Below are positions 23,740-44,072 of a stretch of 53,363 bases of DNA, one piece after another; position 1 is the stretch's first letter; every line of letters starts with the position of its first letter. The translations under genes were made by a program, and so were the position numbers. Origin of the DNA: an uncultured Candidatus Saccharibacteria bacterium. GTDB taxonomy: Bacteria; Patescibacteriota; Minisyncoccia; Phycocordibacterales; UBA12088. The stretch lies in contig CAZMPG010000001.1 of the NCBI GenBank assembly GCA_964568345.1, positions 1 through 53,363 on the forward strand, in the 5' to 3' direction. The notes beneath the pieces were generated by a model that saw only the letters and a list, made by a program, of their open reading frames with translations, was not told where the DNA came from and searched no databases.

Positions 23740-23877
23740 ATGCCGAAGCGAACCTACCAACCCAAGAAGCGTAAGCGCGCAACGACCCACGGCTACCTCG
23801 TGCGGAAGCGCACCCCAGGCGGCAGGCGGGTGATCCGCCGCCGCATGGCAAAAGGGCGCTCCAAGCTATCCGTCTAG
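23740..23877 (+). CDS. rpmH: 50S ribosomal protein L34
   Basis: [45 protein letters not shown]. Confidence 0.95.
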
Positions 23878-25725: not shown

Positions 25726-27021
25726 TTAATCCTCCATCCCGCCCGTACTGCTTGCCTCGTTTCCCGGAAGCCGGAGCGCCCAGAGCTCGTCGCTCACCCG
25801 CTCGCGGAAGACGAGGAAGTCCTCAAGCGGTGTGACCGATATATCCATGATGTCGAACTGCCGCTGTACCTCCGCCTCGGGGTCCGCGAGGCGCTCCGAG
25901 GTGCCGCTTACGGTGTCGAAGCGCCAGAGCATGTCACGGGACACCGCACGGCCCTGGCGCCACGCCTCCTGGAACGCGTCGGTGCTCTGTGCGCTATCTA
26001 CAGGCACCGCACAGTAGACATATTTCCCACTTTCGCCCCACGCGCACTTCTCACGCATTGTGTACAGGGGGAGGTACACGAGTGACGCATCCTTGAGCGT
26101 CACGATGCGGAGCGAGGGGAAGCCATCTTCGCGCTCCTTGAGCCCGGTAAGCACGCGGTCTCCCGCCGGACTCACCGTGGTGCCGAGCGTGTATGCGGGG
26201 CCAATAGCCGGCTGTTTCGTGCGCTTCACAGGGTCCACGAGCCACGCGACGCCCGTCGCCGCGGGGGTGGGGTTCAGGTGTACCACAATGCTCCTCGTGC
26301 CGCCCCAGGAGGTCGTGAGGCTGCGGAAGGGGAAGCTTGTCACCTCGGTGCGCGCTCCGCCAGAGATCGGCTCGACGTAGAGGGTGGAGCCGCTGTTGGT
26401 CGGTTGGAGGTAGGCTACCGAGGCACCGTCGGGCGAGAACACCACCCCGCGCACGTCGTTGGGGAGCGGGCGCCCGTGGAGCCCCGCATTGGAAGACGTG
26501 CTCGTGGTTGCGGTCAGTGTGCCAAGGAAGGAGAAGAGGATATCACCCGCTTCGTTTTGGTAGCGGAGCGCGGTTGTTGAGCCGGTAGGCGACCATATAG
26601 CTTCGCCGACACGGAGAATTGTCTTGCGGGAGAGAGCCACGGGCTTCTCGACAGTATCGAGCGGCGCCTCAAAGACGTTGCCGTTTGCCCGCTCGACGTA
26701 GCGCACGACCGGTGTCGTTGCGAGGAGCCGGCGCACCTCGAGCGCAACAGCGCCCGCAGTGGGTGTGTCGGTGATGCGGCGGAGGAGCGGGAGCGCCGCT
26801 ACGGGAGCCTGGGTGTCGCCACCCTCCCCGGGATTCTCCGGAGTGGTAGCGGTGTCGCGGGGGGTGGTGCTTTCGACACCACGCTCGCTCGAGGTGTCGC
26901 CAAAGCCGCCTTCGCCCGAAGGGGTCTCCTTCCCGCTACCCCCGAGGAGCACCACCCCAAGCCCAATGAGGAGGAGGAGAAGCACCGCGATAGCGCCGAG
27001 GAGGAGACGTTTGTCTTGCAT
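25726..27021 (-). CDS. Membrane-anchored protein with PD40/TolB-like beta-propeller repeats (function unknown)
   Basis: N-terminal TM (LLLGAIAVLLLLLIGLGVVLL), a low-complexity linker, and repeats such as VVFSPDGASVAYL and IWSPTGSTTALRY. Last gene of the T4SS-like cluster. Confidence 0.6.
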   Translation of the reverse strand: MQDKRLLLGAIAVLLLLLIGLGVVLLGGSGKETPSGEGGFGDTSSERGVESTTPRDTATTPENPGEGGDTQAPVAALPLLRRITDTPTAGAVALEVRRLLATTPVVRYVERANGNVFEAPLDTVEKPVALSRKTILRVGEAIWSPTGSTTALRYQNEAGDILFSFLGTLTATTSTSSNAGLHGRPLPNDVRGVVFSPDGASVAYLQPTNSGSTLYVEPISGGARTEVTSFPFRSLTTSWGGTRSIVVHLNPTPAATGVAWLVDPVKRTKQPAIGPAYTLGTTVSPAGDRVLTGLKEREDGFPSLRIVTLKDASLVYLPLYTMREKCAWGESGKYVYCAVPVDSAQSTDAFQEAWRQGRAVSRDMLWRFDTVSGTSERLADPEAEVQRQFDIMDISVTPLEDFLVFRERVSDELWALRLPGNEASSTGGMED

Positions 27022-27022
27022 A

Positions 27023-27514
27023 CTAGAGCTGATTTATTGCAGTACACCGGGGGTCTGATTGTGGATTGGCACGGCACTGTTCTACTAGAGCGGCGGTTAT
27101 CTCATCTGGGGTCGGGCCCGTCCCCCCGGTACCGTTTGTCGCAGATCGAAACACATCGAATCGCACGAGGTCAGGGTTGATGGTCTTGAGGACAAGGATG
27201 GCGACGAGTACGAGGAGGAGGCCGCCGATGGCGCTCCCTATCTTATCCTTTGCATCGCCGAGTTTAACCGGCGTCTCCGATGTCATCCACACGAAGCCGC
27301 CGATGGCGACCTCAATGACCGCGAGCACCGCCGCGATGCCGACCGAAATGCCAACGAGTGCGTCGAGGAGTTCTGCGAAATCGCTTTTCCATACATTGCT
27401 CGAGATGAAGGGGAGGTGGGGGGAGAGCGGCACGTACTCTGCGCCAAGCACCCAGAGTGTGGGAACAAGCGCCATAGCGGTGAGGGCGAAAAGTGTGGTG
27501 AGGGTGCGTCTCAT
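27023..27514 (-). CDS. T4SS pilin-like protein (TrbC/VirB2-type)
   Basis: Signal peptide MRRTLTTLFALTAMALVP. TM1 (VGISVGIAAVLAVIEVAIGGFVWM), charged loop (GDAKDKIG), TM2 (GGLLLVLVAILVL). Confidence 0.6.
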   Translation of the reverse strand: MRRTLTTLFALTAMALVPTLWVLGAEYVPLSPHLPFISSNVWKSDFAELLDALVGISVGIAAVLAVIEVAIGGFVWMTSETPVKLGDAKDKIGSAIGGLLLVLVAILVLKTINPDLVRFDVFRSATNGTGGTGPTPDEITAALVEQCRANPQSDPRCTAINQL

Positions 27515-28566
27515 GGAGTGAAGGAGGTTGCCGGCTGTACCGCGGCCGTGTCGAAGGACACCGTCGTGCCGGCAGACACGCGCTGCTGCCAGATGTTGGT
27601 GTGCTGGATCAAGAGCGACACCTCCGCGCTCCCTGCCCCCTTCCCCTCGGGGCGGAGCACGAGGGATCCTATGGTGGTAAAGTCCTGGTCGCCGACCTGC
27701 CAGGCGTACGTGAGTGCCGGGTCGGAGCGTGAGAGTGCGCTTAGGTAGTAGGGCTCGGCGATGAGGGTCGCTTCCGCCGCCCTAATGCGGTACGCGTCGC
27801 CCAGTGCGCGGTGGTAGGAGACGCCGGTAAGGGGGTCGTCCTCGTAGAGCACGAGCTGCGGCTCCGCTGTGTCTACGACGAGGCGCTTCGTGGTACGTAT
27901 CGTACCGGTATCGTCCTTGACCTCGAGGAATATATCAAATTCGCCGAAAGGCACGTTGTTGGTGAGCGTTACCGACTGGAGGCCCTTTCCTGCCACATCG
28001 GGGGTGAAGCTCTTGTTCATGTACCACGCGTACATGAGCGTTGTGGGGTCGAGGAGCACCCCCTTAGGCCCCATGACACTCGGGAGCGCAAGGATCGTCA
28101 TGGGCGTCCCGGGAGCGTAGCGCGCTCTGCCGCCAAAAAAGGGCGGTGTGTAGCTCTTTGCCTCCCATACGAGGGCTACATCGGCGACTTGGAGGACATT
28201 CGTCGCCTCGATGGCCGTACCCTTCGTGTCGCGGAGGAGTACAGTGATGCGCATAACCTCGCCCAGTTTCCCCGCGGTGAAGGAGCATGAGGTGCCCCCA
28301 CTCGACTCCTTGATGACCACGCCATTTACCTTCCAGGTGACGAGTGCCGTGGAGCTGTCAACAGCGCTCGTCTGCACCTCAGCGGTCACCGTATCGCCCG
28401 GGCGCGGGTAGGGTGGGCTCACCTTGATGGCGATGCCGATGGGGGGGTTACTCCCAAAGAGCGCTCCCTGCGCGTCGGCGCGGTGTCCGAGCGCCACACT
28501 CCCACATGCGAGCAGTACGAGAAGGGTGCGCACCATTCGACGAGTACCCATAGGGAAAGTATACAC
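27511..28566 (-). CDS. Secreted protein with Ig-like repeats, unknown function
   Basis: Signal peptide (MVRTLLVLLACGSVALG). Beta-rich repeats. 4-nt overlap with the downstream pilin gene. Confidence 0.6.
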   Translation of the reverse strand: MYTFPMGTRRMVRTLLVLLACGSVALGHRADAQGALFGSNPPIGIAIKVSPPYPRPGDTVTAEVQTSAVDSSTALVTWKVNGVVIKESSGGTSCSFTAGKLGEVMRITVLLRDTKGTAIEATNVLQVADVALVWEAKSYTPPFFGGRARYAPGTPMTILALPSVMGPKGVLLDPTTLMYAWYMNKSFTPDVAGKGLQSVTLTNNVPFGEFDIFLEVKDDTGTIRTTKRLVVDTAEPQLVLYEDDPLTGVSYHRALGDAYRIRAAEATLIAEPYYLSALSRSDPALTYAWQVGDQDFTTIGSLVLRPEGKGAGSAEVSLLIQHTNIWQQRVSAGTTVSFDTAAVQPATSFTP

Positions 28567-28605
28567 GATGCTCGCTAGCTGGCGCCGCCTCCGGTGAGGA
28601 TAACC

Positions 28606-29196
28606 CTACGCCGGTGCCATGACGGGGTTGTCGACCATGTCCTCGTCGTCTCGGTACTGCCGTGGCTTTTGGGCAGCCGCATCCTTCGCTTTGCGTTCAT
28701 CCTCCTCCCGGGTTGCTTTGATGTGGAGCAGTACCGCGGTGGTGCACGCGGGAATGAGGATATTGAGTACGGGGAAGAACTTGACGATGAAGGTGGCGAA
28801 GTTGGTGAGGAACCGCTTCGGCGTTGCCGCCCACATGAAGACGCCGTGCGCCATGAACCATATAGTAAAGACGCCGGCAAAGAGGACGTTGCTGAGGACC
28901 GATGCAATTGCAAGGATGAGGGGGCCGAGGGTGATCATGGTGAGTGCGGCGGCAATTGCAGCGGTAATCTTTACACCGACCTGTATAACACACTGAGCAC
29001 CGTGCCAGACGTACCCCGAAATCCCCGCCCCTGCCGCCTTGATGCACTCCGTGCCGAGCGACGATATCCCATAGAATACGAGCGCTGCCGCAGCGATGAG
29101 TGCTGCGACGGGGAGGAGGTCGAAGAGGATGCCGACCGCGACCATGTGGCGGCGCGTGCTCTTCGAGATGCGGTAGGAGACCTGCTCTTCGCTCAT
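28606..29196 (-). CDS. Polytopic membrane protein of the T4SS-like cluster, unknown function
   Basis: About 5 hydrophobic segments. 4-nt overlap with the VirB4 stop. Confidence 0.6.
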   Translation of the reverse strand: MSEEQVSYRISKSTRRHMVAVGILFDLLPVAALIAAAALVFYGISSLGTECIKAAGAGISGYVWHGAQCVIQVGVKITAAIAAALTMITLGPLILAIASVLSNVLFAGVFTIWFMAHGVFMWAATPKRFLTNFATFIVKFFPVLNILIPACTTAVLLHIKATREEDERKAKDAAAQKPRQYRDDEDMVDNPVMAPA

Positions 29197-31019
29197 ACAC
29201 TTGCTTCACCCCCTGCGGCTATCTCTTCTCGCTCTTTCTTGATAGCGAGGAGCTGTGAGGGGTCGGAGGTGATGATTTGGTCCTCGGTGTACGAGGCGAT
29301 GATCTTCACCGCAACGTGCTTGTTGCCGGCAAAGAAGATGCCCTCCCCCACCTGCGACTCGAGGAGGAGGTACTTCTCCTCGTCGGTGAGGTTGAAGGTC
29401 GCCTGGATCTTGTCGATGGCGGTCGGCGACTGCTTGAGGAGCACCTGGATCGAAGAGTTTGTGATCATCGGCACGCCGTACGGGCTCTTGAGGAAGTCGT
29501 CCACGTCCTGGGTGATCGTCGCGAGGCCGAGGTAGTACTTGCGGCCGCGCTTTGCGACGCTGAAGAGAAAGCTTGCGGTGTCATTGCTCTTCATCATCCA
29601 CCACGCCTCGTCGACGACGAGGAGCCGCTTCTGGAGCCGCCGGCGCACCGCGGTCCATATGTGGTTCGTGATGATATACATTGCCGCAGCCTTGAGGTCC
29701 TCCTCCATGTCGCGTACGGAGAAGACGATGAACTTGTGGTTGATGTCCACGTTCGTTGGTTTGTTGATGAAGCCCGCCCACGTGCCCTTCGTGTACTTCG
29801 TGAGCCGCACCATGATGGACTCGCTCCCCTCCATACCGGCGAGCACGAGCTCGAAGTCGGAGAGCAGGGGCGGGGTGAGGTCGGTGAAGTCGGTGTTGCC
29901 GGTTATTTCCTTGAGTGCGTACGTCTCGGTGATCGCGCGGTCAATGAGCGCATCCTCCTCGGGGGTGAGGCCGCCGAGGATGATGCGGAAGAAGCCAACG
30001 AGGGTGATGATGTTTTGTCGGAGGAGTTCCGCAGGATTCTCATCCTCGTGGACCGGCGGTAGGTCGAAGGGGTTGATGTGGTGCTCCGAGGAAAGGGAGA
30101 TGTTGAAGTAGTGGCCGCCGGTTGCGTTTGCCATGTACTCGTACTCGCGCTCGGGGTCAATGACAATCACCTCGACGTCGAACATGAGCGAACGGAGGAC
30201 CTCGAGCTTCGTTGTGTAGCTCTTGCCCGCGCCCGACTTAGCGAAGAGGACCGAGTTGTAGTTCTCCATCGAGTAGCGATCGAAGAGGACGAGTGAGTTG
30301 TTGTGGAGGTTGATGCCATAGAGAACCCCTTTTTCAGAGGTAAGGTCGAAGGAGATAAAGGGGAAGATAGACGAGAGTGGCGCGGAGTTGAGCTTGTTGT
30401 GGACCAAGAGCTCGTCGGTACCGAGGGGGAGGATACTCCGGTAGCCCTGCTCCTGTTGGAAGAGTGCGGGTTTGAGGTACACCATCTGTGCCTCGAGGAT
30501 GGACTTCACCTTCGTCTCGACCTTGTCGAGGAGCTCCTTGGTCGGCGCGTAGACCGAGATGTACACGCCGACGTCGAAGAGGCGCTCCTGGGCCTGCTGG
30601 AGGGAGTCGCGGAGTGACTCAAGGTTCTCGTACGCAGCATCAAGCATTGGGTCGCGCACCATGCCGCGGCTCTCGCGCTCGTTTATTTGGCTTTGCACCT
30701 CCGCAACCTTTTTCTGAAACTTCTTGAGAACAGGCGCGGTTTCGATAGGGTGGATGAAGATGGAGATGTCGAAGACATGCTCGAGGTTGATGATAGGAGC
30801 GAACCAGTTCTCGGTGAGGTACCGCGGGTACGAGATCACGAAGAATACCCGGGAGACCTTCTCGCCGAGGTTGAGCTCGCGCGGCGTTATTTCGAGCGCC
30901 GAGGGAGCAAGGACATCCTTGAGCTCGAGGCCGCCCGCGTTCACGACGTCGCGCGGGAGTATGTGGTCGAGCTCCACCGTTTCGACCGCACCTTTTTTGC
31001 TGAACGAGAAGAGTCCCAT
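29193..31019 (-). CDS. VirB4/TrbE-family T4SS ATPase (ATPase portion)
   Basis: Walker A FAKSGAGKSYTTK, Walker B RLLVVDEAWWMM, GLATITQD. N-terminal LAPSALEITPRELNLGEKVSRVFFVISYPRYL is typical of VirB4-like proteins. Confidence 0.9.
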   Translation of the reverse strand: MGLFSFSKKGAVETVELDHILPRDVVNAGGLELKDVLAPSALEITPRELNLGEKVSRVFFVISYPRYLTENWFAPIINLEHVFDISIFIHPIETAPVLKKFQKKVAEVQSQINERESRGMVRDPMLDAAYENLESLRDSLQQAQERLFDVGVYISVYAPTKELLDKVETKVKSILEAQMVYLKPALFQQEQGYRSILPLGTDELLVHNKLNSAPLSSIFPFISFDLTSEKGVLYGINLHNNSLVLFDRYSMENYNSVLFAKSGAGKSYTTKLEVLRSLMFDVEVIVIDPEREYEYMANATGGHYFNISLSSEHHINPFDLPPVHEDENPAELLRQNIITLVGFFRIILGGLTPEEDALIDRAITETYALKEITGNTDFTDLTPPLLSDFELVLAGMEGSESIMVRLTKYTKGTWAGFINKPTNVDINHKFIVFSVRDMEEDLKAAAMYIITNHIWTAVRRRLQKRLLVVDEAWWMMKSNDTASFLFSVAKRGRKYYLGLATITQDVDDFLKSPYGVPMITNSSIQVLLKQSPTAIDKIQATFNLTDEEKYLLLESQVGEGIFFAGNKHVAVKIIASYTEDQIITSDPSQLLAIKKEREEIAAGGEASV

Positions 31020-31020
31020 A

Positions 31021-31704
31021 CTATGTGGTGAGTTGGTCGGTAAGGTCAGAGAGCGAGACGGGACGGTCGAGCTCGCCGATATTGAAGAGGCGGTAGAAGA
31101 GCTCGATCACCTCCTCGGTGCCGAGCTGCGCGGTGCGCACGCCACAGCGGCTGAGACCCTGGGAGACGAGGGAAACCCGTTGCTCCATCTGGCTCCGGTA
31201 CTCCTCGAAGATCTGTGGGGTGAGCTTGGCGAGGCCTTCCTCGGGGCTCGCAAACAGTGCGCCGATCCCCCCCCGTACGCCCTGCCCCGGGCCAAAGGCT
31301 GGCGGGCTGTACGGTACGACGACGTAGAAGCCCTTGGTCATGATGCTCGACCCCTCGACAAAGCTCCGTACGAAGTCTATGTACTCACGCACCTGGATCT
31401 TCATGAGCTCGCTCTGCTGCTCGCCGTAGCGCTGCTCAAGGAGTGTGAGGTAGGGGCGGATGTCGAGCTCTCGCGACTGCACGAAGACTTGCACCGAAAA
31501 GTCGAGCGAGTTTAGGAAGCTCTGGAATTGGGCGAGGATGGCTTGCTGCTCGTCTGCCGACTTGAGCACGATGTTTATCGAAGACGCCATGAGGACGGAG
31601 CGTATCGAGCCGTCGCGGAGGATGAGGATGCCGTCGCGCACCTGCTCGATGGGCACGAAGTCTTGGCTCGGGGTGGCGCGGGTGCTGTGCTGGGGGGCGG
31701 GCAT
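31021..31704 (-). CDS. VirB4 N-terminal-domain-like protein (separate ORF)
   Basis: FVPIEQVRDGILILRDGSIRSVLMASSINIVLKSADEQQAILAQFQSFLNSLDFSVQVFVQSRELD resembles the N-terminal region of long VirB4/TraE-type ATPases. Its stop lies 1 nt before the ATPase ATG. Confidence 0.55.
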   Translation of the reverse strand: MPAPQHSTRATPSQDFVPIEQVRDGILILRDGSIRSVLMASSINIVLKSADEQQAILAQFQSFLNSLDFSVQVFVQSRELDIRPYLTLLEQRYGEQQSELMKIQVREYIDFVRSFVEGSSIMTKGFYVVVPYSPPAFGPGQGVRGGIGALFASPEEGLAKLTPQIFEEYRSQMEQRVSLVSQGLSRCGVRTAQLGTEEVIELFYRLFNIGELDRPVSLSDLTDQLTT

Positions 31705-31707
31705 ACG

Positions 31708-32127
31708 TTAGGAAGGTTGTTCACCGCTCTCCTGGGTGTCGAGGTTCCACGCGAGCTCCTTGAGGCGCGACTGGGTGAGGTGTGGGGTGAGGGGGCGTGT
31801 GGGCGCCGCGCTTGCGGCTGCTGCGTGCGCGGCGGCGTGGTGCTTCCCTACCCCCTTCTTCCAGAGGTAGAGCTTGTTGCGGAGCGTGTAAAAGACGGCG
31901 GCGTAGAGGGAGGAGATGAACGGTCGTTCGTTTATCTTCACGAAAGCAAGCGCAAACGCAAGGATGCCGATCGGTGTGCCGAAGATGACGGTGGAGAAGA
32001 AGCCGAACTCCGTGTAGAGGAATACCGCAAAGCCCAGAGCGCCACCGACATAGAGCCCCTGCTTGAAGGTGAGCGGGCCAAAGACCTTATCCTCGAACTC
32101 TATGAACTGTGGTACGGAAAAGCGCAT
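31708..32127 (-). CDS. PrgI/VirB3-like small membrane protein
   Basis: MRFSVPQFIEFEDKVFGPLTFKQGLYVGG followed by two TM segments. Position immediately upstream of VirB4. Confidence 0.55.
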   Translation of the reverse strand: MRFSVPQFIEFEDKVFGPLTFKQGLYVGGALGFAVFLYTEFGFFSTVIFGTPIGILAFALAFVKINERPFISSLYAAVFYTLRNKLYLWKKGVGKHHAAAHAAAASAAPTRPLTPHLTQSRLKELAWNLDTQESGEQPS

Positions 32128-32142
32128 GTGCTGTGGGTACTA

Positions 32143-32190
32143 CTCCTATCCTGGCGTTGTCATTGCGAGCGTGAGCAGAGCAATCCACGT
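32143..32190. repeat. Fragment related to the MITE-like element core
   Basis: GTCATTGCGAG (32159-32169) ... AGCAATCCACG (32179-32189) matches copy A at 994-1004 and 1018-1028. The preceding CTATCCT motif is also shared. Confidence 0.35.
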
Positions 32191-32233
32191 GGTCGGTGCG
32201 GTGTGGTGTATGCAGTATACCGCCCGCCGCCCC

Positions 32234-33040
32234 CTACGGTATCGACTCGCGGTACGGGTCGCGGTTGATCTCGTCGCGGGTTGCGGCTACGTTCTGTGGT
32301 GCCGGTGCGCTGCCTGTGGTGGCGGGGTTCGCACTTCGCTTGTTGCTACTAAGTGCCCGGAGTATCTCGGTCCGCACCGGAGCGAAGACAAGTTCCTCAA
32401 GGCCATGGAGTAGGTGCTCGCGCTGGTCCTGATCACGGAGGATAGAGGTACTTATGAGCTCTCGGAATGCCGCAATGGGGAGTGCTCCCACCGCGACACG
32501 GAGCACACCATCCCGGAGTGCCGCCGTCTGTGAGTCGGTGAGCGAGTACCGTGCCGCTATGTGGTCAACGGCTTGTGCAGCGGTGCTCGAAGCAAGGTAG
32601 GTGCGTACCGTTTCGGGAAGGCGTGCCGCGTACTCCCGCAGCTCGGGGTCACGGATGAGTCTTTCGGCAAGGGGGGTCTCCTTTTCACTCGACCCATTGA
32701 GGGTGACGCCGTGGGAGAGTTGCGCAGCCCCATCCCGCTTGTCCGCTTGCGCGGTGCAGGGGAACACCTCCTTGAGGAGTGCCTGGTAGAGCCGTGTTGC
32801 AGCGTCGGCGGGGAGTGCGAGCTCTTGGGCAATGAATTCCGCAAGTTCTTCGCGGGTGCAGAGTCCCACGACGGTGCCGACGAACAGGTTGCCGAGCCGC
32901 ATGAGCTGGTCGTTAGTGAGATTTTCGCCCTGTCCGGCGTGGGTGAGCGCATTAGCGGTCTCCTGCGCGAGGAGTGCGTCCTGCAGTGTGGGCGCAAGAA
33001 CGCGGAATTGTTTGTCGAGTTGTTCTTTGGTGAAGTGCAT
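32234..33040 (-). CDS. Hypothetical protein of the T4SS-like cluster
   Basis: 268-aa ORF in operon context, 4 nt after the upstream gene. No family recognised. Confidence 0.55.
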   Translation of the reverse strand: MHFTKEQLDKQFRVLAPTLQDALLAQETANALTHAGQGENLTNDQLMRLGNLFVGTVVGLCTREELAEFIAQELALPADAATRLYQALLKEVFPCTAQADKRDGAAQLSHGVTLNGSSEKETPLAERLIRDPELREYAARLPETVRTYLASSTAAQAVDHIAARYSLTDSQTAALRDGVLRVAVGALPIAAFRELISTSILRDQDQREHLLHGLEELVFAPVRTEILRALSSNKRSANPATTGSAPAPQNVAATRDEINRDPYRESIP

Positions 33041-33043
33041 AGG

Positions 33044-35881: not shown

Positions 35882-36024
35882 CTGCCACGCACCTTCTTAC
35901 TGTAGAGCTGCTGGTACGACGCCTGTGGTGAGGCGATGATGGAAGCGGTGCGACATGGGCACCACAGATAGCCGCACCTACGCGGCACCTCGCGGCAGCT
36001 GTCCCCAGCCATCCCATACGTTAC

Positions 36025-36080
36025 AGTATACGACGGTCTGTGGATAAACCTAGGGACAAGAGGTGGGTAGTCTGTGGATT
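36025..36080 (-). promoter_or_regulatory. Duplicated promoter/operator module, copy 1 (-10 TATACT plus two DnaA-box-like motifs)
   Basis: 51 of 56 nt identical to 42018-42073. Contains TGTGGATAA (36039-36047), TGTGGATT (36073-36080), and AGTATA (36025-36030), which is TATACT on the minus strand. Confidence 0.5.
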
Positions 36081-36088
36081 GTGTCGGG

Positions 36089-38803
36089 CTACGGTGCCCC
36101 AACAGGCAGTATGGATTCGCAGTGCATACCGTCGGCTGCAAGGCGGTACCCAGCTGCGCAGTAGTATTCGCAAGGTTCCGAAGTGTTAGGCACGTGGTAG
36201 TGGTACGCTTGCGTCTGGTCTTGTGACGGGACTACCGAATCGCCATCATAGAGAAGTGCGTGCGGGGGAATCGAGCCGGTACAGGTGCCAGGTCCATCCT
36301 GTTGATCTCCCTCCACCATTACAGAGGCGTGTGCAATGAGGTTGTGATAGGTGAGAGTAAACAGTGACGAACCTGGTTGTAGGCCACGGATATCACCATC
36401 TACAGGGCCTGGGTGACTGGGGTTTTCCGGCACATTTTCGTAGCTCACTACAAGTGGATCCGAATTGGTAAGGGTATGGCCAGGCATATAGACAGTTACA
36501 TCTGGCCCGTGGTTTTCAATACCGTCACAGGTGAGTGGGGTAGGCGAACCAGGTCCTCGATAGTACCCACGGAGCATGCCGTTGCTGCCTACCCCAAGCA
36601 TCACAACCTTCGAAGGCTGGAGTTGTAGCGCGCTGGAGCCGCACAGTACGAGGGAACCTGCAGATTCCGGTGTCGGTCTTGCACAAGTACTCCCGTTCCA
36701 AGCTTGAAACGGAGGGCAATCACCCGCCTCAGCGAGTCGTGCGGTGATATTGGTACTTGCATTCTTGTAGGACACGGTGATCACACTCGATCCACCCTGT
36801 TCTGGCGGTGACCAATGTACCGCACCCGCTGACGCTGTTGACTGGATCCCCACGAGACAGCGAGATGCGTTGCGATACAACCCACCAAGGCAGTGTTCAA
36901 GATCAGTTGCAAAACTGAGGGTAATAACATCGGGATTACTCGATGTCCAATAGTCCGCACCGAATACGTACTCATCCCCAGCCTGACTCTCGATATTTTC
37001 GCATGTTATGGGATCTCCCTGTGCTCGATACCATGCGACCAAAACATCACTTATCCACACCAAAAAGGGGTTTCTGTACTCCTCACTATGTATGGTGTCT
37101 CCGAACCCACAAATAACCATGGAAGGGCCGTCTTGTGGTGGTGGTGGCGGTGGTGGTGGGGTCTCCTTCATCGTCAATGGCTCAACCTCGACCGTAAAGA
37201 CACCCGCATTCGGAACCTCACCCTGCTCGATACCCGTGCCGATCCTGAGTGCACGTGCCTGATCCCCCACGTATATCACAAACTCGTAGTCGTTCTCACT
37301 CGAGTACTCGGGGGTTACTGTAGTGAACCCCACTCCCTCTACGAAGAGTATGTAGGTCTTGATCGGCACGCCACCGCTCCTGTACGAGGTTGTGGTCGAG
37401 TACGAAAGGTGGGCCCCGGCATGACTTGGTGGGGTACTGCTCTCGAGAAGTTCCCGTGTCACCGTGTAGTAGAATGCATCATTCTCTGAAAATGCGGCAT
37501 GGCTTCCACTACCTGCCCCGGTCACCCGCACCCGCACGTAGCCACTGTAGGTCGCCGCGGTTCTACCGGTCGTAATGTCGTTGAAGGAAGCGGCAAGCAC
37601 CTCCGTCGGCCCAGCACTCTCGAAGCAGTCAAAGATGTGTACACCACAGTCCTGCTCCCCTCCCCCTCCTGGAGGTGTGGGCGGAGGTGTTGGCTTAACG
37701 ATCTCACCCTCCCACCCCTCGGCACCCGGGTGCGTCTGCCAGTCGGTTGACGTCGCCGCCATTGCTGCGTTCCAGTAGTCGGTGTCCTTCCCCCCAGAGC
37801 CAAGTCCGAGGAGCCCCTCCTGCGCGGTGGTGAGCACCTTCTCGACGAGCGCCGCGAGGAGCGCATTGATGATCTCCCCCAGCTCGTCGGCGACGGTGAG
37901 CTCCTCAAGCGCCCCTCCCGACCACTTATTGACCTGCTCGGATATGTACTCGCCGGGGGTGCAGGTGTACTCGTCGTCGTTCGTCTTCGAGTCTCCATCC
38001 ATGTCGCAGCGCTGGGAGAGCCAGCCCTTGCCCCAGTTCGTGAGGTTCACCTCATAGCTCTGTGCCGCGCCCGACCGCTTCGCCGCTTCCGACTGGAGGG
38101 AGAAGTACGTGCCGTAGGGGTTGTTCATGTCGTTCGTCATCGCCATGAGCGCAGGTATGCCGCCCTCGGCGAAGTGGAAGTTCCCGCCGACGAACTTCTT
38201 GTACTTGTTGCCGAAGTCCACCTCCCCCTGCACATTGACCTCGACGCCCTTCGAGAAGACCTTGTCGAGGCTACAGGAGAGCATCCCGAGATTATTCTTC
38301 TGGCCGAATACGTCGAATGCGAAACTGAATATGATGTCAATACGGAAGGGGCTACAGAGGAGCTTGTCGAGCCCCTCATTGAAGAGGAATGCGGATACGG
38401 TGTTCAGCATGACACCCTTGAAGAAAGCGTGCGGGTCGGTCACGAACGCCGGTGAGCCCTTGAAGCCGCCGCGGATCCACGAAATGATGCTCTTGGTGAT
38501 GGATTTGATCACCACCTCTTTGATGATCCAGAAAATGGTATCTATGACGCACTCCTTGATGGTGTTTTCCCACGTAGAAGCGGCAGTAGAACCCGTATTG
38601 ATGTTTGTGGTAAAGGGGAAAACTGGCACAGCAAGGGTAGCTTCAGCGGCAGTCCCAGCGATCCCAAACAAGGCCGCTATTGCTGTGGCAAGCCCGCACG
38701 TTGCTTCCGCCGTCCGTACCGGCTGCATCCCGAGGTACGCCGACGGTGCGACGACCGTGATGGCGAGGAGGAGGGCAGTAAGGGTGCGGAGGAGGGGGGT
38801 CAT
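36089..38803 (-). CDS. Large surface/secreted protein, paralog B (904 aa): shared N-terminal module, poly-Pro linker, Cys-rich Big_2-like C-terminal tip
   Basis: Residues 1-547 are identical to paralog A. The unique C-terminus has two similar modules containing YWTSSNPDVITLSF and LTNSDPLVVSYEN. Confidence 0.8.
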   Translation of the reverse strand: MTPLLRTLTALLLAITVVAPSAYLGMQPVRTAEATCGLATAIAALFGIAGTAAEATLAVPVFPFTTNINTGSTAASTWENTIKECVIDTIFWIIKEVVIKSITKSIISWIRGGFKGSPAFVTDPHAFFKGVMLNTVSAFLFNEGLDKLLCSPFRIDIIFSFAFDVFGQKNNLGMLSCSLDKVFSKGVEVNVQGEVDFGNKYKKFVGGNFHFAEGGIPALMAMTNDMNNPYGTYFSLQSEAAKRSGAAQSYEVNLTNWGKGWLSQRCDMDGDSKTNDDEYTCTPGEYISEQVNKWSGGALEELTVADELGEIINALLAALVEKVLTTAQEGLLGLGSGGKDTDYWNAAMAATSTDWQTHPGAEGWEGEIVKPTPPPTPPGGGGEQDCGVHIFDCFESAGPTEVLAASFNDITTGRTAATYSGYVRVRVTGAGSGSHAAFSENDAFYYTVTRELLESSTPPSHAGAHLSYSTTTSYRSGGVPIKTYILFVEGVGFTTVTPEYSSENDYEFVIYVGDQARALRIGTGIEQGEVPNAGVFTVEVEPLTMKETPPPPPPPPQDGPSMVICGFGDTIHSEEYRNPFLVWISDVLVAWYRAQGDPITCENIESQAGDEYVFGADYWTSSNPDVITLSFATDLEHCLGGLYRNASRCLVGIQSTASAGAVHWSPPEQGGSSVITVSYKNASTNITARLAEAGDCPPFQAWNGSTCARPTPESAGSLVLCGSSALQLQPSKVVMLGVGSNGMLRGYYRGPGSPTPLTCDGIENHGPDVTVYMPGHTLTNSDPLVVSYENVPENPSHPGPVDGDIRGLQPGSSLFTLTYHNLIAHASVMVEGDQQDGPGTCTGSIPPHALLYDGDSVVPSQDQTQAYHYHVPNTSEPCEYYCAAGYRLAADGMHCESILPVGAP

Positions 38804-38811
38804 GGGGTGAG
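37163..38811. repeat. 1,649-bp perfect direct repeat, copy 1
   Basis: Identical to 39415-41063 at a constant offset of 2,252 nt. All ORF-track translations in several frames are identical in both copies. Boundaries were found by direct comparison. Confidence 0.9.
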
Positions 38812-38829
38812 CGCCTAATCACGACGCAC

Positions 38830-41055
38830 TCAGTAGTCCAAGAGTTGTACCCGACATATATCGGTACTGCCACAGGTTTGTTGTGGTCTGAAACTCAGGT
38901 AAAGTTGGGTATTTTCCGGGACGACACAGTACCCTTCGCACGGGTTGATGGTTCCTCCGGTAGGTAGTGTAGTGGGGCATGAGTTCGTGCGTGCTATATC
39001 AATAGTGAACCCGTTTTCAGGGCCAATCTGACAGTGTGGATCAGAAGCAGTTATTTCCCCTGGTGTTGTCGTCACCGCTCCCTGCGCCACACCTCCGCCG
39101 GAAGTCTCTCCTGCCTCGGCGCGGTCAATCTTGTACCTATCTGTATTGTTTTGATCCGGAACCTTGCCAAGGTGTGATGATGGAAATGTAATTCGTGCAG
39201 CATACGTTGTACCTGACTGTAGACTTCCGTTATGTCCACAACCGGTTGTTTGCCAGTCCTCACCATTGATGCACCCGGGAACGAACAGTCGATTGCTTGT
39301 GGGGGAGAGATCAAACACAATTACATTTTGTTGTCCCGGTGGGCTCCACACCCCGCTGCCCGGGTCGCCTGTGCCGCCAGTATCATCGTCATCCCCTTCC
39401 CCGCCATCCTCCACCTCCTTCATCGTCAATGGCTCAACCTCGACCGTAAAGACACCCGCATTCGGAACCTCACCCTGCTCGATACCCGTGCCGATCCTGA
39501 GTGCACGTGCCTGATCCCCCACGTATATCACAAACTCGTAGTCGTTCTCACTCGAGTACTCGGGGGTTACTGTAGTGAACCCCACTCCCTCTACGAAGAG
39601 TATGTAGGTCTTGATCGGCACGCCACCGCTCCTGTACGAGGTTGTGGTCGAGTACGAAAGGTGGGCCCCGGCATGACTTGGTGGGGTACTGCTCTCGAGA
39701 AGTTCCCGTGTCACCGTGTAGTAGAATGCATCATTCTCTGAAAATGCGGCATGGCTTCCACTACCTGCCCCGGTCACCCGCACCCGCACGTAGCCACTGT
39801 AGGTCGCCGCGGTTCTACCGGTCGTAATGTCGTTGAAGGAAGCGGCAAGCACCTCCGTCGGCCCAGCACTCTCGAAGCAGTCAAAGATGTGTACACCACA
39901 GTCCTGCTCCCCTCCCCCTCCTGGAGGTGTGGGCGGAGGTGTTGGCTTAACGATCTCACCCTCCCACCCCTCGGCACCCGGGTGCGTCTGCCAGTCGGTT
40001 GACGTCGCCGCCATTGCTGCGTTCCAGTAGTCGGTGTCCTTCCCCCCAGAGCCAAGTCCGAGGAGCCCCTCCTGCGCGGTGGTGAGCACCTTCTCGACGA
40101 GCGCCGCGAGGAGCGCATTGATGATCTCCCCCAGCTCGTCGGCGACGGTGAGCTCCTCAAGCGCCCCTCCCGACCACTTATTGACCTGCTCGGATATGTA
40201 CTCGCCGGGGGTGCAGGTGTACTCGTCGTCGTTCGTCTTCGAGTCTCCATCCATGTCGCAGCGCTGGGAGAGCCAGCCCTTGCCCCAGTTCGTGAGGTTC
40301 ACCTCATAGCTCTGTGCCGCGCCCGACCGCTTCGCCGCTTCCGACTGGAGGGAGAAGTACGTGCCGTAGGGGTTGTTCATGTCGTTCGTCATCGCCATGA
40401 GCGCAGGTATGCCGCCCTCGGCGAAGTGGAAGTTCCCGCCGACGAACTTCTTGTACTTGTTGCCGAAGTCCACCTCCCCCTGCACATTGACCTCGACGCC
40501 CTTCGAGAAGACCTTGTCGAGGCTACAGGAGAGCATCCCGAGATTATTCTTCTGGCCGAATACGTCGAATGCGAAACTGAATATGATGTCAATACGGAAG
40601 GGGCTACAGAGGAGCTTGTCGAGCCCCTCATTGAAGAGGAATGCGGATACGGTGTTCAGCATGACACCCTTGAAGAAAGCGTGCGGGTCGGTCACGAACG
40701 CCGGTGAGCCCTTGAAGCCGCCGCGGATCCACGAAATGATGCTCTTGGTGATGGATTTGATCACCACCTCTTTGATGATCCAGAAAATGGTATCTATGAC
40801 GCACTCCTTGATGGTGTTTTCCCACGTAGAAGCGGCAGTAGAACCCGTATTGATGTTTGTGGTAAAGGGGAAAACTGGCACAGCAAGGGTAGCTTCAGCG
40901 GCAGTCCCAGCGATCCCAAACAAGGCCGCTATTGCTGTGGCAAGCCCGCACGTTGCTTCCGCCGTCCGTACCGGCTGCATCCCGAGGTACGCCGACGGTG
41001 CGACGACCGTGATGGCGAGGAGGAGGGCAGTAAGGGTGCGGAGGAGGGGGGTCAT
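38830..41055 (-). CDS. Large surface/secreted protein, paralog A (741 aa): shared N-terminal module, acidic/Gly linker, different Cys-containing C-terminal tip
   Basis: Residues 1-547 are identical to paralog B. The unique 194-aa C-terminus starts VEDGGEGDDDDTGGTGDPGSG. ATGA overlap with the upstream gene. Confidence 0.8.
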   Translation of the reverse strand: MTPLLRTLTALLLAITVVAPSAYLGMQPVRTAEATCGLATAIAALFGIAGTAAEATLAVPVFPFTTNINTGSTAASTWENTIKECVIDTIFWIIKEVVIKSITKSIISWIRGGFKGSPAFVTDPHAFFKGVMLNTVSAFLFNEGLDKLLCSPFRIDIIFSFAFDVFGQKNNLGMLSCSLDKVFSKGVEVNVQGEVDFGNKYKKFVGGNFHFAEGGIPALMAMTNDMNNPYGTYFSLQSEAAKRSGAAQSYEVNLTNWGKGWLSQRCDMDGDSKTNDDEYTCTPGEYISEQVNKWSGGALEELTVADELGEIINALLAALVEKVLTTAQEGLLGLGSGGKDTDYWNAAMAATSTDWQTHPGAEGWEGEIVKPTPPPTPPGGGGEQDCGVHIFDCFESAGPTEVLAASFNDITTGRTAATYSGYVRVRVTGAGSGSHAAFSENDAFYYTVTRELLESSTPPSHAGAHLSYSTTTSYRSGGVPIKTYILFVEGVGFTTVTPEYSSENDYEFVIYVGDQARALRIGTGIEQGEVPNAGVFTVEVEPLTMKEVEDGGEGDDDDTGGTGDPGSGVWSPPGQQNVIVFDLSPTSNRLFVPGCINGEDWQTTGCGHNGSLQSGTTYAARITFPSSHLGKVPDQNNTDRYKIDRAEAGETSGGGVAQGAVTTTPGEITASDPHCQIGPENGFTIDIARTNSCPTTLPTGGTINPCEGYCVVPENTQLYLSFRPQQTCGSTDICRVQLLDY

Positions 41056-41063
41056 GGGGTGAG
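39415..41063. repeat. 1,649-bp perfect direct repeat, copy 2
   Basis: See copy 1 (37163-38811). Confidence 0.9.
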
Positions 41064-42011
41064 GTGGTTTGCTGCTATGTACGCCGTGATGTCGGTGTGT
41101 GCGGCGACGAGTCGCTTGCCGTACTCGATATACACACCGAGCGCTGCCGCGGCGCGGAGCGGGTCGTCCTCAAGGTGGGTGGCGCTGTCGAGGATGCCGA
41201 CGAAGGCGACGAGGGCGCTGAGGTAGGCGGTCTGGAGCGCCACCGCATCGTCGGGTACGGGCGCGTGCTTGAGTGTCTCGATGTGCGCGGAGTACACCCG
41301 CACTGTGGTACGGAGCTTCTCGAGCGCTTGCGTGCGGTCCCCGCCCTGGCTTATCTCCATGAGCGCTTCATTCTCATTGGGTGCCTCGGTCGTCATCGCG
41401 CGGATCTCCCGCAGATAGGTTGCGATGTAGGCCTTCCGTGTCTCTGGTGTTGCGGGCACGACCGTGAGCCCTTGAGCATCGAACGAGGGGAGCGAGAGCC
41501 CCCTCGACGCTTGGGTGATGGCGCTGTCCACCATCTGCGCCTGCTCCGCGGAGGATGGCTTGCTGTTGGGGTCGCTCTGGAGCCGCGCCATGAAGGAGCT
41601 GAAGACGGTGCGAGAGAGCGCTTCGGTCGCGGTGAGGGGTGTCGAGGATGCCGTGGGCGAGCTGGTTCCCGTATCCTGTGCATACGCCCCCGCCCCCACG
41701 GTGAGCGGGTCGTGCCCTGTCCGCACCTCCTCACCATCGGTCTGCCCGTCGCCGTCGGTGTCGGGGAGTGCCGGGTTTGTGCCCCAGAGCGTCTCCTGCC
41801 AGTTGAGGAGGCTATCGCCGTCGCTGTCTTCCTCGAAGGGGGTTGAGGTTGCGAGTGCTACCGTGGCGGTCGGTTCCTCGGTGTTTTGTCGCTCCGCCGC
41901 GGGGTGGTCATACACGAGTCGTGAGGCGAGCACGACGAAGAGGAGCGCAAGCACACCAAACGCAACCGCTACCATGCGGTTCGCCGCAGCAGCCGACCCC
42001 AGTCGTCCCAT
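41052..42011 (-). CDS. Membrane-anchored protein with thrombospondin-type-3-like Ca-binding repeats
   Basis: Start at ATG 42011 (MGRLGSAAAANRMVAVAFGVLALLFVVLA), with TATACT 6 nt upstream. Contains DSDGDSLLNWQETLWGTNPALPDTDGDGQTDGEEVRTGHDP. Confidence 0.65.
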   Translation of the reverse strand: MGRLGSAAAANRMVAVAFGVLALLFVVLASRLVYDHPAAERQNTEEPTATVALATSTPFEEDSDGDSLLNWQETLWGTNPALPDTDGDGQTDGEEVRTGHDPLTVGAGAYAQDTGTSSPTASSTPLTATEALSRTVFSSFMARLQSDPNSKPSSAEQAQMVDSAITQASRGLSLPSFDAQGLTVVPATPETRKAYIATYLREIRAMTTEAPNENEALMEISQGGDRTQALEKLRTTVRVYSAHIETLKHAPVPDDAVALQTAYLSALVAFVGILDSATHLEDDPLRAAAALGVYIEYGKRLVAAHTDITAYIAANHLTP

Positions 42012-42017
42012 GTCTCT

Positions 42018-42073
42018 AGTATACGACGATATGTGGATAAACCTAGGGACAGGAGGTGGGTAGCCTGTGGATT
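42018..42073 (-). promoter_or_regulatory. Duplicated promoter/operator module, copy 2
   Basis: TATACT (reverse complement of 42018-42023), TGTGGATAA (42032-42040), TGTGGATT (42066-42073). Immediately upstream of the first gene of the minus-strand cluster. Confidence 0.5.
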
Positions 42074-42147
42074 TTCGCCTACATGATATTATGTAGGTTT
42101 GCGGGTTGTGGCATGTTGTGTGTCGCTCCCGTGCTATACTCACTCGC

Positions 42148-43194
42148 ATGGTGCGTGCCGTGCTCGTCTGTGTGTGCGTTGCTGGTGCCCTAGCGCTACA
42201 CTTCCACGGTGCGCGTGTTGCGTACGCAGCCCCTCCCCCATCGTCCTTTTTTCGAGAGTTGTCCGTTGGAATGTACGGCGAGGACGTGCGTGCTCTGCAG
42301 CACATACTCAACCTAGACGAATCCACGAGAATACGCGGGTCTGGGGCTGGGTCACCGGGTAAGGAAACACAGTACTTTGGCGGCCTCACGCGCGACGCGC
42401 TGGTGCGGTTTCAAGAGAAGTACCGACGTGACATACTCACGCCATTTGGGCTCGTGTCGGGGACGGGGCGTGCAAATTGGCGCACACTCGCGGTGCTCGT
42501 GAGGGTTCGTAGCACACTCCAGGGTAGCGGGGCAAGCCAGGCGGTGAAGGGGGTCGTTGCGTCTAGTTCTAGAGACACTCTGACCCAGAAAGAGCCAGCG
42601 AAGACCTCTTCCCAAGGCGTATTCGACCCAAATCGCGAGAGCCGGATAGCAATGATCGCCGCCGTTGAGTATGTTGCAAGAAAGCAAGGGAAAACTAACA
42701 AGGAAATAGCACATTTGAAAGAGTTGGTGACGAAAAGTATGGCCACAAGCACCGATCTTAAGCGTGCTTTCGAGGATTTGGTAAGGAAAACTTCCGCGAA
42801 GTATAAAAAAGTGTCTCGTTCCGGCTTCCCAGCTTTTTTTGCACGTGTCGCCGGTTTTCTCGGGGAGTTGTTTATGCCTGAGCAAGCGTATGCCGGGTTG
42901 GGAACTCCGTTTGGGGGGCACCTTAAGGCGGCGGTCCCTTGTGCTTGCAGCGATACGTGGCTTATCACACTTGCCCCGCCACTCCCACCGTCGTTTGTTG
43001 TCCTGCTCTCCTACATACCCGAGACCCAGCTGTTCCTCTATGAAAACATACCGATGACCTCCGAACTGCTTGGGTTCTATGAACCGGGCGCCGGAATATG
43101 TCTTGAGCCGGGAACCCCTTGTGAACCAATACCGAACGAAGGTCTCATCTCACCTTTTGTCGGTTCATCGATGATGGGTTTCACTGATCCGTAG
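42148..43194 (+). CDS. Secreted peptidoglycan-binding (PG_binding_1-like) domain protein
   Basis: Signal peptide MVRAVLVCVCVAGALALHF. GEDVRALQHILNLDE...YFGGLTRDALVRFQEKY. TATACT lies 8 nt upstream of the ATG at 42148. Confidence 0.7.
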   Translation: MVRAVLVCVCVAGALALHFHGARVAYAAPPPSSFFRELSVGMYGEDVRALQHILNLDESTRIRGSGAGSPGKETQYFGGLTRDALVRFQEKYRRDILTPFGLVSGTGRANWRTLAVLVRVRSTLQGSGASQAVKGVVASSSRDTLTQKEPAKTSSQGVFDPNRESRIAMIAAVEYVARKQGKTNKEIAHLKELVTKSMATSTDLKRAFEDLVRKTSAKYKKVSRSGFPAFFARVAGFLGELFMPEQAYAGLGTPFGGHLKAAVPCACSDTWLITLAPPLPPSFVVLLSYIPETQLFLYENIPMTSELLGFYEPGAGICLEPGTPCEPIPNEGLISPFVGSSMMGFTDP

Positions 43195-43230: not shown

Positions 43231-43266
43231 ACAGTGGCTATGTCGCAAGGCATAGCCACTGTTTTA
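43231..43266. terminator. Bidirectional terminator hairpin overlapping the rsmA stop
   Basis: 12-bp stem ACAGTGGCTATG (43231-43242) / CATAGCCACTGT (43251-43262), then TTTA. Confidence 0.6.
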
Positions 43267-44071: not shown

Positions 44072-44072
44072 A

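Follow-up and report, generated by a model that had tools for sequence, protein, structure and literature searches.

We analyzed a contig of 53,363 nt (CAZMPG010000001.1, assembly GCA_964568345.1) from an uncultured bacterium deposited as Candidatus Saccharibacteria, which GTDB places in the Minisyncoccia (Phycocordibacterales, UBA12088). This whole contig is the window referred to below, and the scans for absent genes cover it. A string of minus-strand genes at 25726-42011, with a divergent gene beside it, very probably encodes a type IV secretion system (T4SS) characteristic of the Patescibacteria (candidate phyla radiation, CPR) that is fixed in the chromosome and passed on vertically, in the arrangement that Paceibacteria/Parcubacteria have beside the replication origin. 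Nearly all ultra-small Patescibacteria possess such a relaxase-less chromosomal cluster close to the origin. The kind of T4SS, the missing relaxase, and the origin-proximal position have already been published (2023-2025); the finding is correct but not new. The window offers a clean and complete Paceibacteria example and no new principle, and its residual novelty lies in unannotated, positionally conserved accessory genes and in a duplicated adhesin-like pair with variable tips.

A comparison of synteny across related genomes, which the original prediction had called for, found the locus at the same site and in the same order in 82 loci, without mobility genes. These loci were compared by tblastn with the window's proteins and comprise two long contigs (L001 and L002) and 80 loci from species-representative genomes, the latter all metagenome-assembled genomes of CPR bacteria. 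The shared order is UvrD-KsgA-(peptidoglycan [PG]-binding protein)-TSP3 protein-adhesin-like paralog-VirB6-soluble protein-PrgI-TrsD-VirB4-(transmembrane protein)-Ig-like protein-pilin-propeller, then Jag-YidC-RnpA on the other strand, and then DnaA-DnaN. With many loci ending at contig ends and divergent genes falling below the sensitivity of tblastn, we counted VirB4 in 82 loci, PrgI, the TrsD-like protein, and the Ig-like protein in 80 each, the propeller in 68, the VirB6-like protein in 64, the pilin in 55, the paralog N-domain in 46, the TSP3 protein in 24, and the PG-binding protein in 14.

Median identity across the relatives was 73% for VirB4, 53% for DnaA, 48% for UvrD, and 45% each for YidC and KsgA. 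VirB4 was better conserved than DnaA in every relative, including the nearest (L002), where the values were 82% and 71%. Secretion ATPases do not usually surpass DnaA, YidC, UvrD, and KsgA in conservation, and this excess speaks for strong purifying selection. Together with the fixed order and site, it points to a vertically inherited, strongly constrained core locus and not to a mobile element.

These observations are difficult to reconcile with the alternative that the locus is a degenerate or cryptic integrative and conjugative element (ICE) of the MPF_FATA class that either lost its relaxase, coupling protein, and integrase or has them a short way beyond the contig ends. Core genes stand on both sides of the locus in the 82 loci (ksgA/uvrD; jag/yidC/rnpA/dnaA), the divergence of VirB4 tracks, and stays below, that of DnaA and YidC, G+C is ~60% across the window with no compositional break at the T4SS locus, and Pfam scans covering at least 16 kb to each side of the locus found no integrase, relaxase, or type IV coupling protein (T4CP). 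An ICE would fit the VirB4 score, which exceeds the cut-off of a model derived from ATPases of conjugative elements (NF045971), as well as a pilin-like match to a Mycoplasma ICE protein; the published VirB4 clade also nests in MPF_FATA, which agrees with its having been acquired long ago from a conjugative element (PMC12102498). We rejected this interpretation on synteny, which largely refutes it, and regard it as highly improbable. The claim that this is not a classical conjugative element thus finds support in the taxonomy of the VirB4 homologues, in the synteny of the 82 loci, and in the literature.

Pfam scans of the window's plausible open reading frames (ORFs) detected no relaxase, VirD4/TcpA, VirB11-size ATPase, or integrase, and oriT was not searched for; for this 53-kb contig, these scans bear out the original prediction that no relaxase, VirD4, VirB11, or integrase can be recognized. 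Among the called genes within 10 kb on either side in L001 and L002, there was likewise no relaxase or T4CP. A tblastn search with the R751 T4CP, VirB11, VirB4, integrase, and other proteins against the window and the 82 loci returned only a PilB-like ATPase, although this search is too insensitive to serve as a negative, as even R751 TrbE missed the CPR VirB4. The PilB/GspE-type ATPase of the window (10642-12405, plus strand, 587 aa; T2SSE 4e-108 and an MshEN domain) presumably serves type IV pili. It is the sole VirB11-superfamily member in the window and is not a VirB11.

The arrangement agrees with a survey of 3035 Patescibacteria genomes (Quinonero-Coronel et al. 2025, Microb Genom, PMC12102498). 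In that survey, the Patescibacteria VirB4 clade is monophyletic and nested in MPF_FATA; genes for TrsD, PrgI/VirB3, VirB6, and VirB2-like (PF18895) proteins adjoin virB4; relaxases occur in only 103 of the genomes; and the Paceibacteria locus lies close to dnaA, dnaN, rnpA, ksgA, and rpmH. The authors describe these systems as relaxase-less, origin-proximal, derived from MPF_FATA, and co-opted for nonconjugative functions. The window has the same VirB4 type, the same TrsD, PrgI, and VirB6-like genes and a candidate PF18895 pilin gene beside virB4, no recognized relaxase, and the same dnaA/dnaN/rnpA/ksgA/rpmH neighbors, and we see no essential difference. Genes left gray in that survey are described here, namely those for the Ig-like (80/82), propeller (68/82), TSP3, PG-binding, and adhesin-like proteins, and this genome adds a perfect tandem duplication of 1.65 kb. 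A 2025 review from the Christie laboratory presents the Patescibacteria systems as recent and distinct additions to the T4SS superfamily (PMC12857230).

VirB4 and the other secretion components

The 608-aa ATPase matched PF19044 (P-loop_TraG, 4.7e-23) and AAA_10 (4e-12) in Pfam, and in NCBIfam it matched NF045971 (conju_CD1110) with 363 bits, above the cut-off of 325, over profile positions 181-733 of 752. The closest solved structure is that of VirB4 from the Gram-positive Thermoanaerobacter (PDB 4ag5, 5.4e-44), compared with 1e-7 for TrwK of R388. Judged by these matches, which strongly confirm the predicted VirB4 ATPase, the protein is unambiguously a VirB4, of the Gram-positive (MPF_FATA/CD1110) type. 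Of its more than 8000 homologues, the best 120 are 74 to 87% identical to it, and every named source among these 120 is assigned to Patescibacteria, Paceibacteria, or Parcubacteria. By the identity and sources of the best 120 homologues, rather than by a tree, this VirB4 appears to belong to a Patescibacteria-specific clade.

The ORF of 227 aa next to it, predicted to be a VirB4 N-domain, matched NF041427 (TrsD) at 2.1e-7, with a score short of the cut-off of 200. Its alignments span positions 2-117 of NF045971 and positions 103-232 of the VirB4 model NF045975, and its orthologues, with a median identity of 55%, carry PF26593 (TraC-like). The TrsD match, the shared CD1110 profile, and PF26593 on the orthologues all support the prediction. 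Because the 227-aa ORF covers profile positions 2-117 and the 608-aa protein covers 181-733, VirB4 is split here as it is in TrsD/TrsE of pGO1. A profile of the TrsD-like ORF found no match among PDB sequences.

The window's own matches for the PrgI, pilin, and VirB6-like proteins are below threshold or lacking, and these assignments therefore rest on orthologues, topology, and position. The predicted PrgI/VirB3-like protein has two adjacent transmembrane (TM) segments, its orthologue in L002 has an unmarked PrgI match, and it is present in 80 of the 82 loci; its own score against PF12666 (4.1e-5, 24.5 bits) stays below the gathering threshold (GA) of 27. The VirB2/TrbC-like pilin, likewise upheld in part, has the expected topology of a signal peptide and two hydrophobic helices. 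Its matches to PF18895 (T4SS_pilin, 18.1 bits against a GA of 26.6, E 0.003) and to NF045849 (Mbov_0395 pilin-like, 3e-4, cut-off 40) all fall below the cut-offs, and its orthologues in L001 and L002 also match PF18895 weakly. PF12666 for the PrgI-like protein and T4SS_pilin/NF045849 for the pilin candidate are the sole matches that these two proteins have. Elsewhere in the window, a second T4SS_pilin gene (13703-14296, minus strand) scores above GA against PF18895, with 28.9 bits. No other gene accompanies it between ruvB and ruvC, at a distance of 11 kb from the locus, and we detected no sequence similarity between its product and the pilin of the string.

For the predicted VirB6/TrbL-like protein, the window's 945-aa sequence has no Pfam or NCBIfam match of its own, and the prediction stands through its relatives. 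Seven of the 59 full-length orthologues matched PF04610 (TrbL/VirB6), the best at 6.5e-7, and the match of the L029 orthologue (E 0.0022; residues 99-307 to profile positions 3-190) maps onto window residues 163-378, the TM core. The protein has ~7 TM segments in residues 30-420, followed by a hydrophilic C-terminal half of ~500 aa. By this transitive evidence from orthologues, we interpret it as a probable "extended VirB6." Its family profile retrieved nothing relevant from PDB sequences, and the family profiles A1, A2, A5, and A8 gave only noise against all R751 proteins, with TrbL and TrbJ not recovered.

Two further proteins are placed by position. The soluble protein of 268 aa has no significant family in Pfam or NCBIfam and is 25% identical to its counterparts in L001 and L002, and a soluble ORF separates the VirB6-like gene from PrgI in 64 of 64 loci. 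The 196-aa protein, with ~4 TM segments by a Kyte-Doolittle scan, has no Pfam or NCBIfam match; 51 of 80 loci have an ORF of 100 aa or more in this place, between VirB4 and the Ig-like gene, and in 50 of these 51 it has at least two TM segments.

Compared with the MPF_FATA systems of Firmicutes (CD1110/CTn2 of Clostridioides difficile, TrsD/TrsE of pGO1, and PrgH-I-J of pCF10), the locus shares a VirB4 above the CD1110 equivalog cut-off, a separate TrsD-like N-domain as in pGO1, PrgI-like and PrgH/VirB6-like partners, and a monoderm envelope logic without VirB7, VirB9, and VirB10. It differs from them in that no relaxase, T4CP (PcfC/TcpA), VirB1-type hydrolase, or VirB8-like protein (PrgL) is recognized in the cluster, and in having a candidate VirB2-like pilin, a fixed chromosomal position, and vertical inheritance.

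Envelope proteins and the proposed host-interaction machine

The accessory proteins named in the original prediction all found some support in profile matches. The PD40-like propeller protein has one N-terminal TM segment and keeps its position in the 68 loci that carry it; a profile of 54 orthologues placed TolB in all of the top 12 PDB matches (best 8.9e-5), and the protein itself matched TIGR02800 at 0.0075. The Ig-like protein follows directly after VirB4 or the TM protein in 80 of the 82 loci and contains three repeats with invariant W77/W180/W288 spacing. Its family profile matched the Ig-like domains of T4 Hoc at 5.9e-4, and the protein itself matched GldM_2nd at 0.001. The anchored protein predicted to carry Ca-binding repeats matched PF18884 (TSP3_bac) at 9e-4 as well as the TSP3-type models NF047639 and NF033765, and its L002 orthologue has a weak TSP3_bac match. 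The divergent PG-binding protein that flanks the string matched PF01471 (PG_binding_1) at 5.5e-4 with 20.5 bits, below the GA of 23, and occupies the same divergent position in 14 loci. Half of the operon (the Ig-like, TolB-like, TSP3, PG-binding, and variable adhesin-like genes) is thus positionally as conserved as the canonical VirB components, yet unannotated, and the accessory proteins are obvious targets for understanding how a monoderm T4SS builds its pilus and recognizes a host. Beyond ksgA and uvrD, 4 kb upstream of the string, we also noted a cell-wall hydrolase gene of LysM(x2)-Peptidase_M23 architecture (46166-47236, plus strand). Some Patescibacteria VirB1-like proteins carry M23/LysM domains (PMC12102498).

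Conserved candidates for the means by which ultra-small CPR bacteria physically exploit their hosts are few. This system is one of them, and the T4SS is essential in the only genetically tractable relative. In Southlakia epibionticum, transposon sequencing found the T4SS cluster and pilins to be essential for epibiotic growth, and coupling and relaxase proteins were not recognized (Wang et al. 2023, Cell, PMC10633639). The S. epibionticum ML1 cluster (SEML1_0006-0019) is chromosomal and shares with the window the monoderm-type VirB4, TrsD, PrgI, VirB6, and the lack of a recognizable relaxase or coupling protein in the cluster; its VirB2-like pilins have a candidate counterpart here. It differs in belonging to the class Saccharimonadia, in having six divergent pilins and adjacent peptidase/lysozyme genes, where the window's string has one pilin candidate and no hydrolase inside it, and in being the only one for which essentiality has been shown. 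In Paceibacteria-type cells that parasitize methanogens, the top-expressed unknown genes include those for T4SS pilins and for PG-binding, Ig-like, and galactose-binding proteins (Kuroda et al. 2024, PMC10936435), and tubular structures at a parasite-host contact site may be T4SS pili (2026 bioRxiv preprint 10.64898/2026.06.21.733656).

By analogy with characterized T4SSs, VirB3 would tether VirB4 with TrsD to a channel that VirB6 forms in the single membrane, and VirB4 would energize the extraction and polymerization of the VirB2-like pilin into a pilus or a conduit that crosses the cell wall. Four proteins that are predicted to be extracytoplasmic (Ig-like, TolB-like, TSP3, and PG-binding) may scaffold the passage through the envelope, plausibly replacing VirB8/VirB1, and the variable-tip paralogs would bind the host cell surface. 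Because the Saccharibacteria homologue is essential for epibiotic growth, the machine is proposed to serve contact-dependent exchange with the host (effector export and/or uptake of host macromolecules) and not conjugation. The earlier suggestion of a dedicated surface or host-interaction apparatus, as inferred for episymbionts, is supported to this extent and matches published conclusions, with function assigned by analogy.

Several observations weigh against this interpretation of the locus. VirD4-like homologues occur in 2918 of the 3035 Patescibacteria genomes, mostly far from virB4 (PMC12102498), and a coupling protein may lie elsewhere in this genome, of which the contig shows 53 kb only. 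The PrgI, pilin, and VirB6-like proteins of the window are below curated cut-offs or without a match, and no VirB8-like or VirB1-like gene was recognized inside the string; the M23/LysM peptidase is outside it, 4 kb off, with ksgA and uvrD in between. The assigned function (pilus, substrate, and direction of transport) is extrapolated throughout, using the distant class Saccharimonadia together with expression and imaging data.

The direction of transport separates one alternative, in which the locus encodes a machine analogous to archaeal Ced that imports DNA (or RNA/nucleotides), bringing host nucleic acid into a cell unable to make nucleotides. The ATPase does show weak partial similarity to CedB (NF041017, 1.5e-7; 30 bits, with the cut-off at 700), but this is far weaker than its matches to conjugative VirB4, and CedA-like genes were not recognized. 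Pfam scans of plausible ORFs across the window showed no export-type coupling or relaxase proteins, a review speculates on the uptake of host molecules (PMC12857230), a 2026 preprint links VirB4 and feeding on host RNA in the phylum (10.64898/2026.06.21.733656), and in the class ABY1 the locus neighbors comF/recG/radA (PMC12102498), all of which would suit import. Deletion of comEC in S. epibionticum, however, abolished competence and left viability unaffected (PMC12857230, citing Wang 2023), and the essential role of the T4SS is therefore not ComEC-dependent DNA uptake. We consider the import machine unlikely, and it is a sub-hypothesis of contact-dependent exchange more than a separate entity.

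The other alternative limits the locus to adhesion and pilus biogenesis, with VirB4 assembling a VirB2-type fiber tipped by the variable paralogs and no substrate translocation. Type IV pili already appear to be encoded for adhesion in this genome, given the PilB-like ATPase at 10642-12405, and in Saccharibacteria type IV pili mediate host adhesion (PMC12206443); retention of the extended VirB6 channel protein in a highly conserved position also speaks against a role in adhesion only. Such a role would nonetheless agree with the presence of the pilin and of adhesin-like genes with binding modules in the same operon, with the lack of a coupling ATPase nearby in the Pfam scans of the window's ORFs, and with the function of VirB4 as the pilus-assembly ATPase of Gram-negative systems (PMC12102498). 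We judge this alternative to be quite unlikely, and we retain contact-dependent exchange with the host as the proposed function.

The adhesin-like paralogs

Upstream of the VirB6-like gene are two genes whose products are 100% identical over residues 1-547 and have unrelated C-termini. At the nucleotide level, an exact-match scan found a perfect direct repeat of 1649 nt, consisting of 8 nt of leader and codons 1-547, at an offset of 2252. This repeat reflects either a very recent duplication, gene conversion, or an assembly artifact. Short-read assemblers normally break at a repeat of this length. The tandem duplication was not confirmed independently, as the 904-aa protein is unrecorded elsewhere and the other contigs with an identical VirB4 are 4-kb fragments only.

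Paralog 1 consists of a signal peptide, an N-domain (residues ~60-340), a beta-rich middle part shared with paralog 2, and a unique Cys-rich C-terminus (548-904); the C-terminus of paralog 2 (548-741) differs from it. Neither C-terminus had a match in the 82 loci or in the PDB. Directly upstream of the VirB6-like gene, 46 of the 82 loci encode the N-domain, which carries the motifs W-I-N-S-G-F-x-G-x-P-x-F-V-T-D, LCSPF, NNPYGA, TPG, and ADE-x-x-E-I. No Pfam model covers it. An HMMER search of 1.84 billion representatives with residues 62-340 of paralog 2 returned 3017 clusters (formed at 50% identity) at a threshold of E ≤ 1e-3; at 1e-10 there were 1798. A word-indexed homologue search found 16 and then 20 relatives. 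Other family members carry C-terminal modules of the F5/8-type-C (discoidin, galactose-binding), Ig-like, fn3, PKD, and beta-helix types. As read from these sequences, the family architecture is that of a predicted adhesin, in which the anchor stays constant and the binding tips can be exchanged.

A tentative lead, which we think more likely wrong than right and do not present as a result, is that the paralogs and the family of ~3000 N-domain clusters are the missing VirB5-like tip/adhesin subunit of the Patescibacteria T4SS. As with the minor pilins VirB5 and TrbJ, the paralog gene lies directly upstream of the VirB6-like gene (compare virB5-virB6 and trbJ-(K)-trbL), long helices are predicted in the family, and in many members the signal peptide is followed by the motif "(I)PV.D..NL.QN," as at the N-terminus of mature TrbJ. 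This post-signal-peptide segment reads AG-IPVIDGTNLSQNIMTAI in TrbJ and AVPTIDHSNLAQNTITAT, ANLPVIDASNLIPNIL, and AQIPVTDVANLSAN in family members; the window's paralogs carry only a degenerate form (VPVFPFTTNIN). In contrast to VirB5/TrbJ, the family members are 2-4x longer and have extra C-terminal binding modules, and the profile-profile similarity is weak.

Searches with individual members led to the same short segment. Three of 93 family members matched TrbJ models of NCBIfam, four different ones in all, with a best value of 8.7e-5. DUF4141, whose proteins are annotated within Bacteroides tra operons (PMC10434189), was matched by two of the 93 members and by P0136 and P0139, over only ~30 N-terminal residues and below GA. 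With phmmer, R751 TrbJ aligned solely to the post-signal-peptide motif of family members, and hhalign against nine plasmid TrbJ sequences gave a probability of 15% (P 0.0018), with the similarity confined to the signal peptide and the "PV.D" motif. AlphaFold2 models of the N-domain from alignments of 17 and 29 sequences were all-helical, with low confidence that makes them unusable (pLDDT 47.7 and 56.5); Foldseek found no match to these low-confidence models in the PDB with E < 1, and the family profile retrieved nothing relevant from PDB sequences. If the lead were true, the N-domain would dock on VirB6 or the pilus stalk, and the choice of host would be set by lectin or Ig modules that can be swapped at the C-terminus. 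The identity over 1.65 kb would then reflect ongoing gene conversion or a cassette-like diversification of host-binding tips.

Gene starts, leader, and chromosomal neighborhood

The minus-strand string comprises 12 ORFs joined by 4-nt overlaps or gaps of 1-207 nt (Table 1), as its predicted tight packing had implied. Transcription runs from 42011 to 25726, with the TSP3-repeat anchor gene first and the TolB/PD40-like propeller gene last.

Table 1. Coordinates of the T4SS string, its repeats and leader, and neighboring genes in the window.
Feature	Position	Strand	Remarks
TolB/PD40-like beta-propeller protein, N-terminally anchored	25726-27021	-	431 aa; last in string
VirB2/TrbC-like T4SS pilin candidate	27023-27514	-	163 aa; 1-nt gap to propeller gene
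Secreted triple Ig-like protein	27511-28566	-	351 aa, or 341 aa from later start; 4-nt overlap with pilin gene
Polytopic membrane protein, no family	28606-29196	-	196 aa; ~4 TM
VirB4-type ATPase, C-terminal two-thirds	29193-31019	-	608 aa; 4-nt overlap with 196-aa gene
TrsD-like protein, putative detached VirB4 N-terminal domain	31021-31704	-	227 aa; 1 nt upstream of virB4
PrgI/VirB3-like small membrane protein	31708-32127	-	139 aa; 2 TM
Soluble protein without known family, kept by position	32234-33040	-	268 aa
Extended VirB6/TrbL-like polytopic protein (probable)	33044-35881	-	945 aa as ORF; likely start M18 = 35830
Adhesin-like paralog 1	36089-38803	-	904 aa
Adhesin-like paralog 2	38830-41055	-	741 aa
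TSP3 (Ca-binding)-repeat protein, N-terminally anchored	41052-42011	-	319 aa; first in string; 4-nt overlap with paralog 2
Secreted PG_binding_1 protein, divergent	42148-43194	+	~348 aa from M15 of 362-aa ORF
Perfect direct repeat, copy 1	37163-38811		1649 nt
Perfect direct repeat, copy 2	39415-41063		1649 nt
Promoter-like leader of string	41985-42073	-	perfect DnaA box (TTATCCACA), near-box (AATCCACAG), TATACT, then ATG
jag	25079-25546		Pfam scan
rpmH	23743-23877		1.85 kb from string
dnaA	20011-21486		Pfam scan
dnaN	18653-19753		Pfam scan
ksgA	43238-44050		Pfam scan

Several gene starts needed attention. The first gene had been read as a 445-aa ORF reaching 42389, which is an over-extension of a sort typical in high-GC DNA. 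Because its orthologues are 288-354 aa long and share the conserved start MGRLGSAA, the true start is the ATG at 42011; the protein is therefore 319 aa and the gene does not overlap the PG-binding gene. Residue M18 of the VirB6-like protein is invariant in the family alignment, and a gene caller placed the start of the Ig-like gene 10 codons later on identical contigs. Outside the string, the longest ORFs of ksgA (43238-44368), ruvC (14461-15483), and dnaA (20011-21486) have N-terminal extensions of ~125, ~180, and ~45 aa without domain matches, that of ksgA overlapping uvrD; these are probably also products of ORF over-extension in high-GC DNA and not real domains.

The leader at 41985-42073 includes the start of the first gene (MGRLGSAA...). 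A second copy of ~90 nt, ~93% identical, lies upstream of the VirB6-like gene (35990-36080, minus strand) and contains a vestigial, out-of-frame start, MGWLGTAA. We rejected the DnaA box as a conserved regulatory feature, as a perfect box stands upstream of the first gene in only 3 of 82 relatives, and a scan for sigma-70 promoters and terminators found no excess of sites over shuffled sequence.

The string had been placed ~4 kb from the rpmH-yidC cluster; instead, it abuts rpmH-rnpA-yidC-jag, ending 180 bp from jag, 0.64 kb from yidC, 1.85 kb from rpmH, and ~4.2 kb from dnaA. It is transcribed toward dnaA, and every related locus that reaches dnaA shows the string in the same orientation. The GC-skew minimum lies at ~18-20 kb, adjoining dnaN/dnaA. 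If oriC sits at this minimum near dnaA, the string would be head-on to the replication fork. Apart from the locus, the PilB-type ATPase, the second pilin gene, and the LysM/M23 peptidase, the Pfam scans of the window's plausible ORFs showed only housekeeping genes (RuvA/B/C, a Mur ligase, a SpoU methylase, MetK, PolA, PBP1, DnaN, DnaA, RnpA, YidC, Jag, KsgA, UvrD, RNase Y, an ECF [extracytoplasmic function] sigma factor, and a TrmB regulator). The gene for the ECF sigma factor (51054-51653) is followed by that for a 607-aa DUF5667 protein (49282-51105), both on the minus strand within 49282-51653, and the pair looks like a sigma/anti-sigma module.

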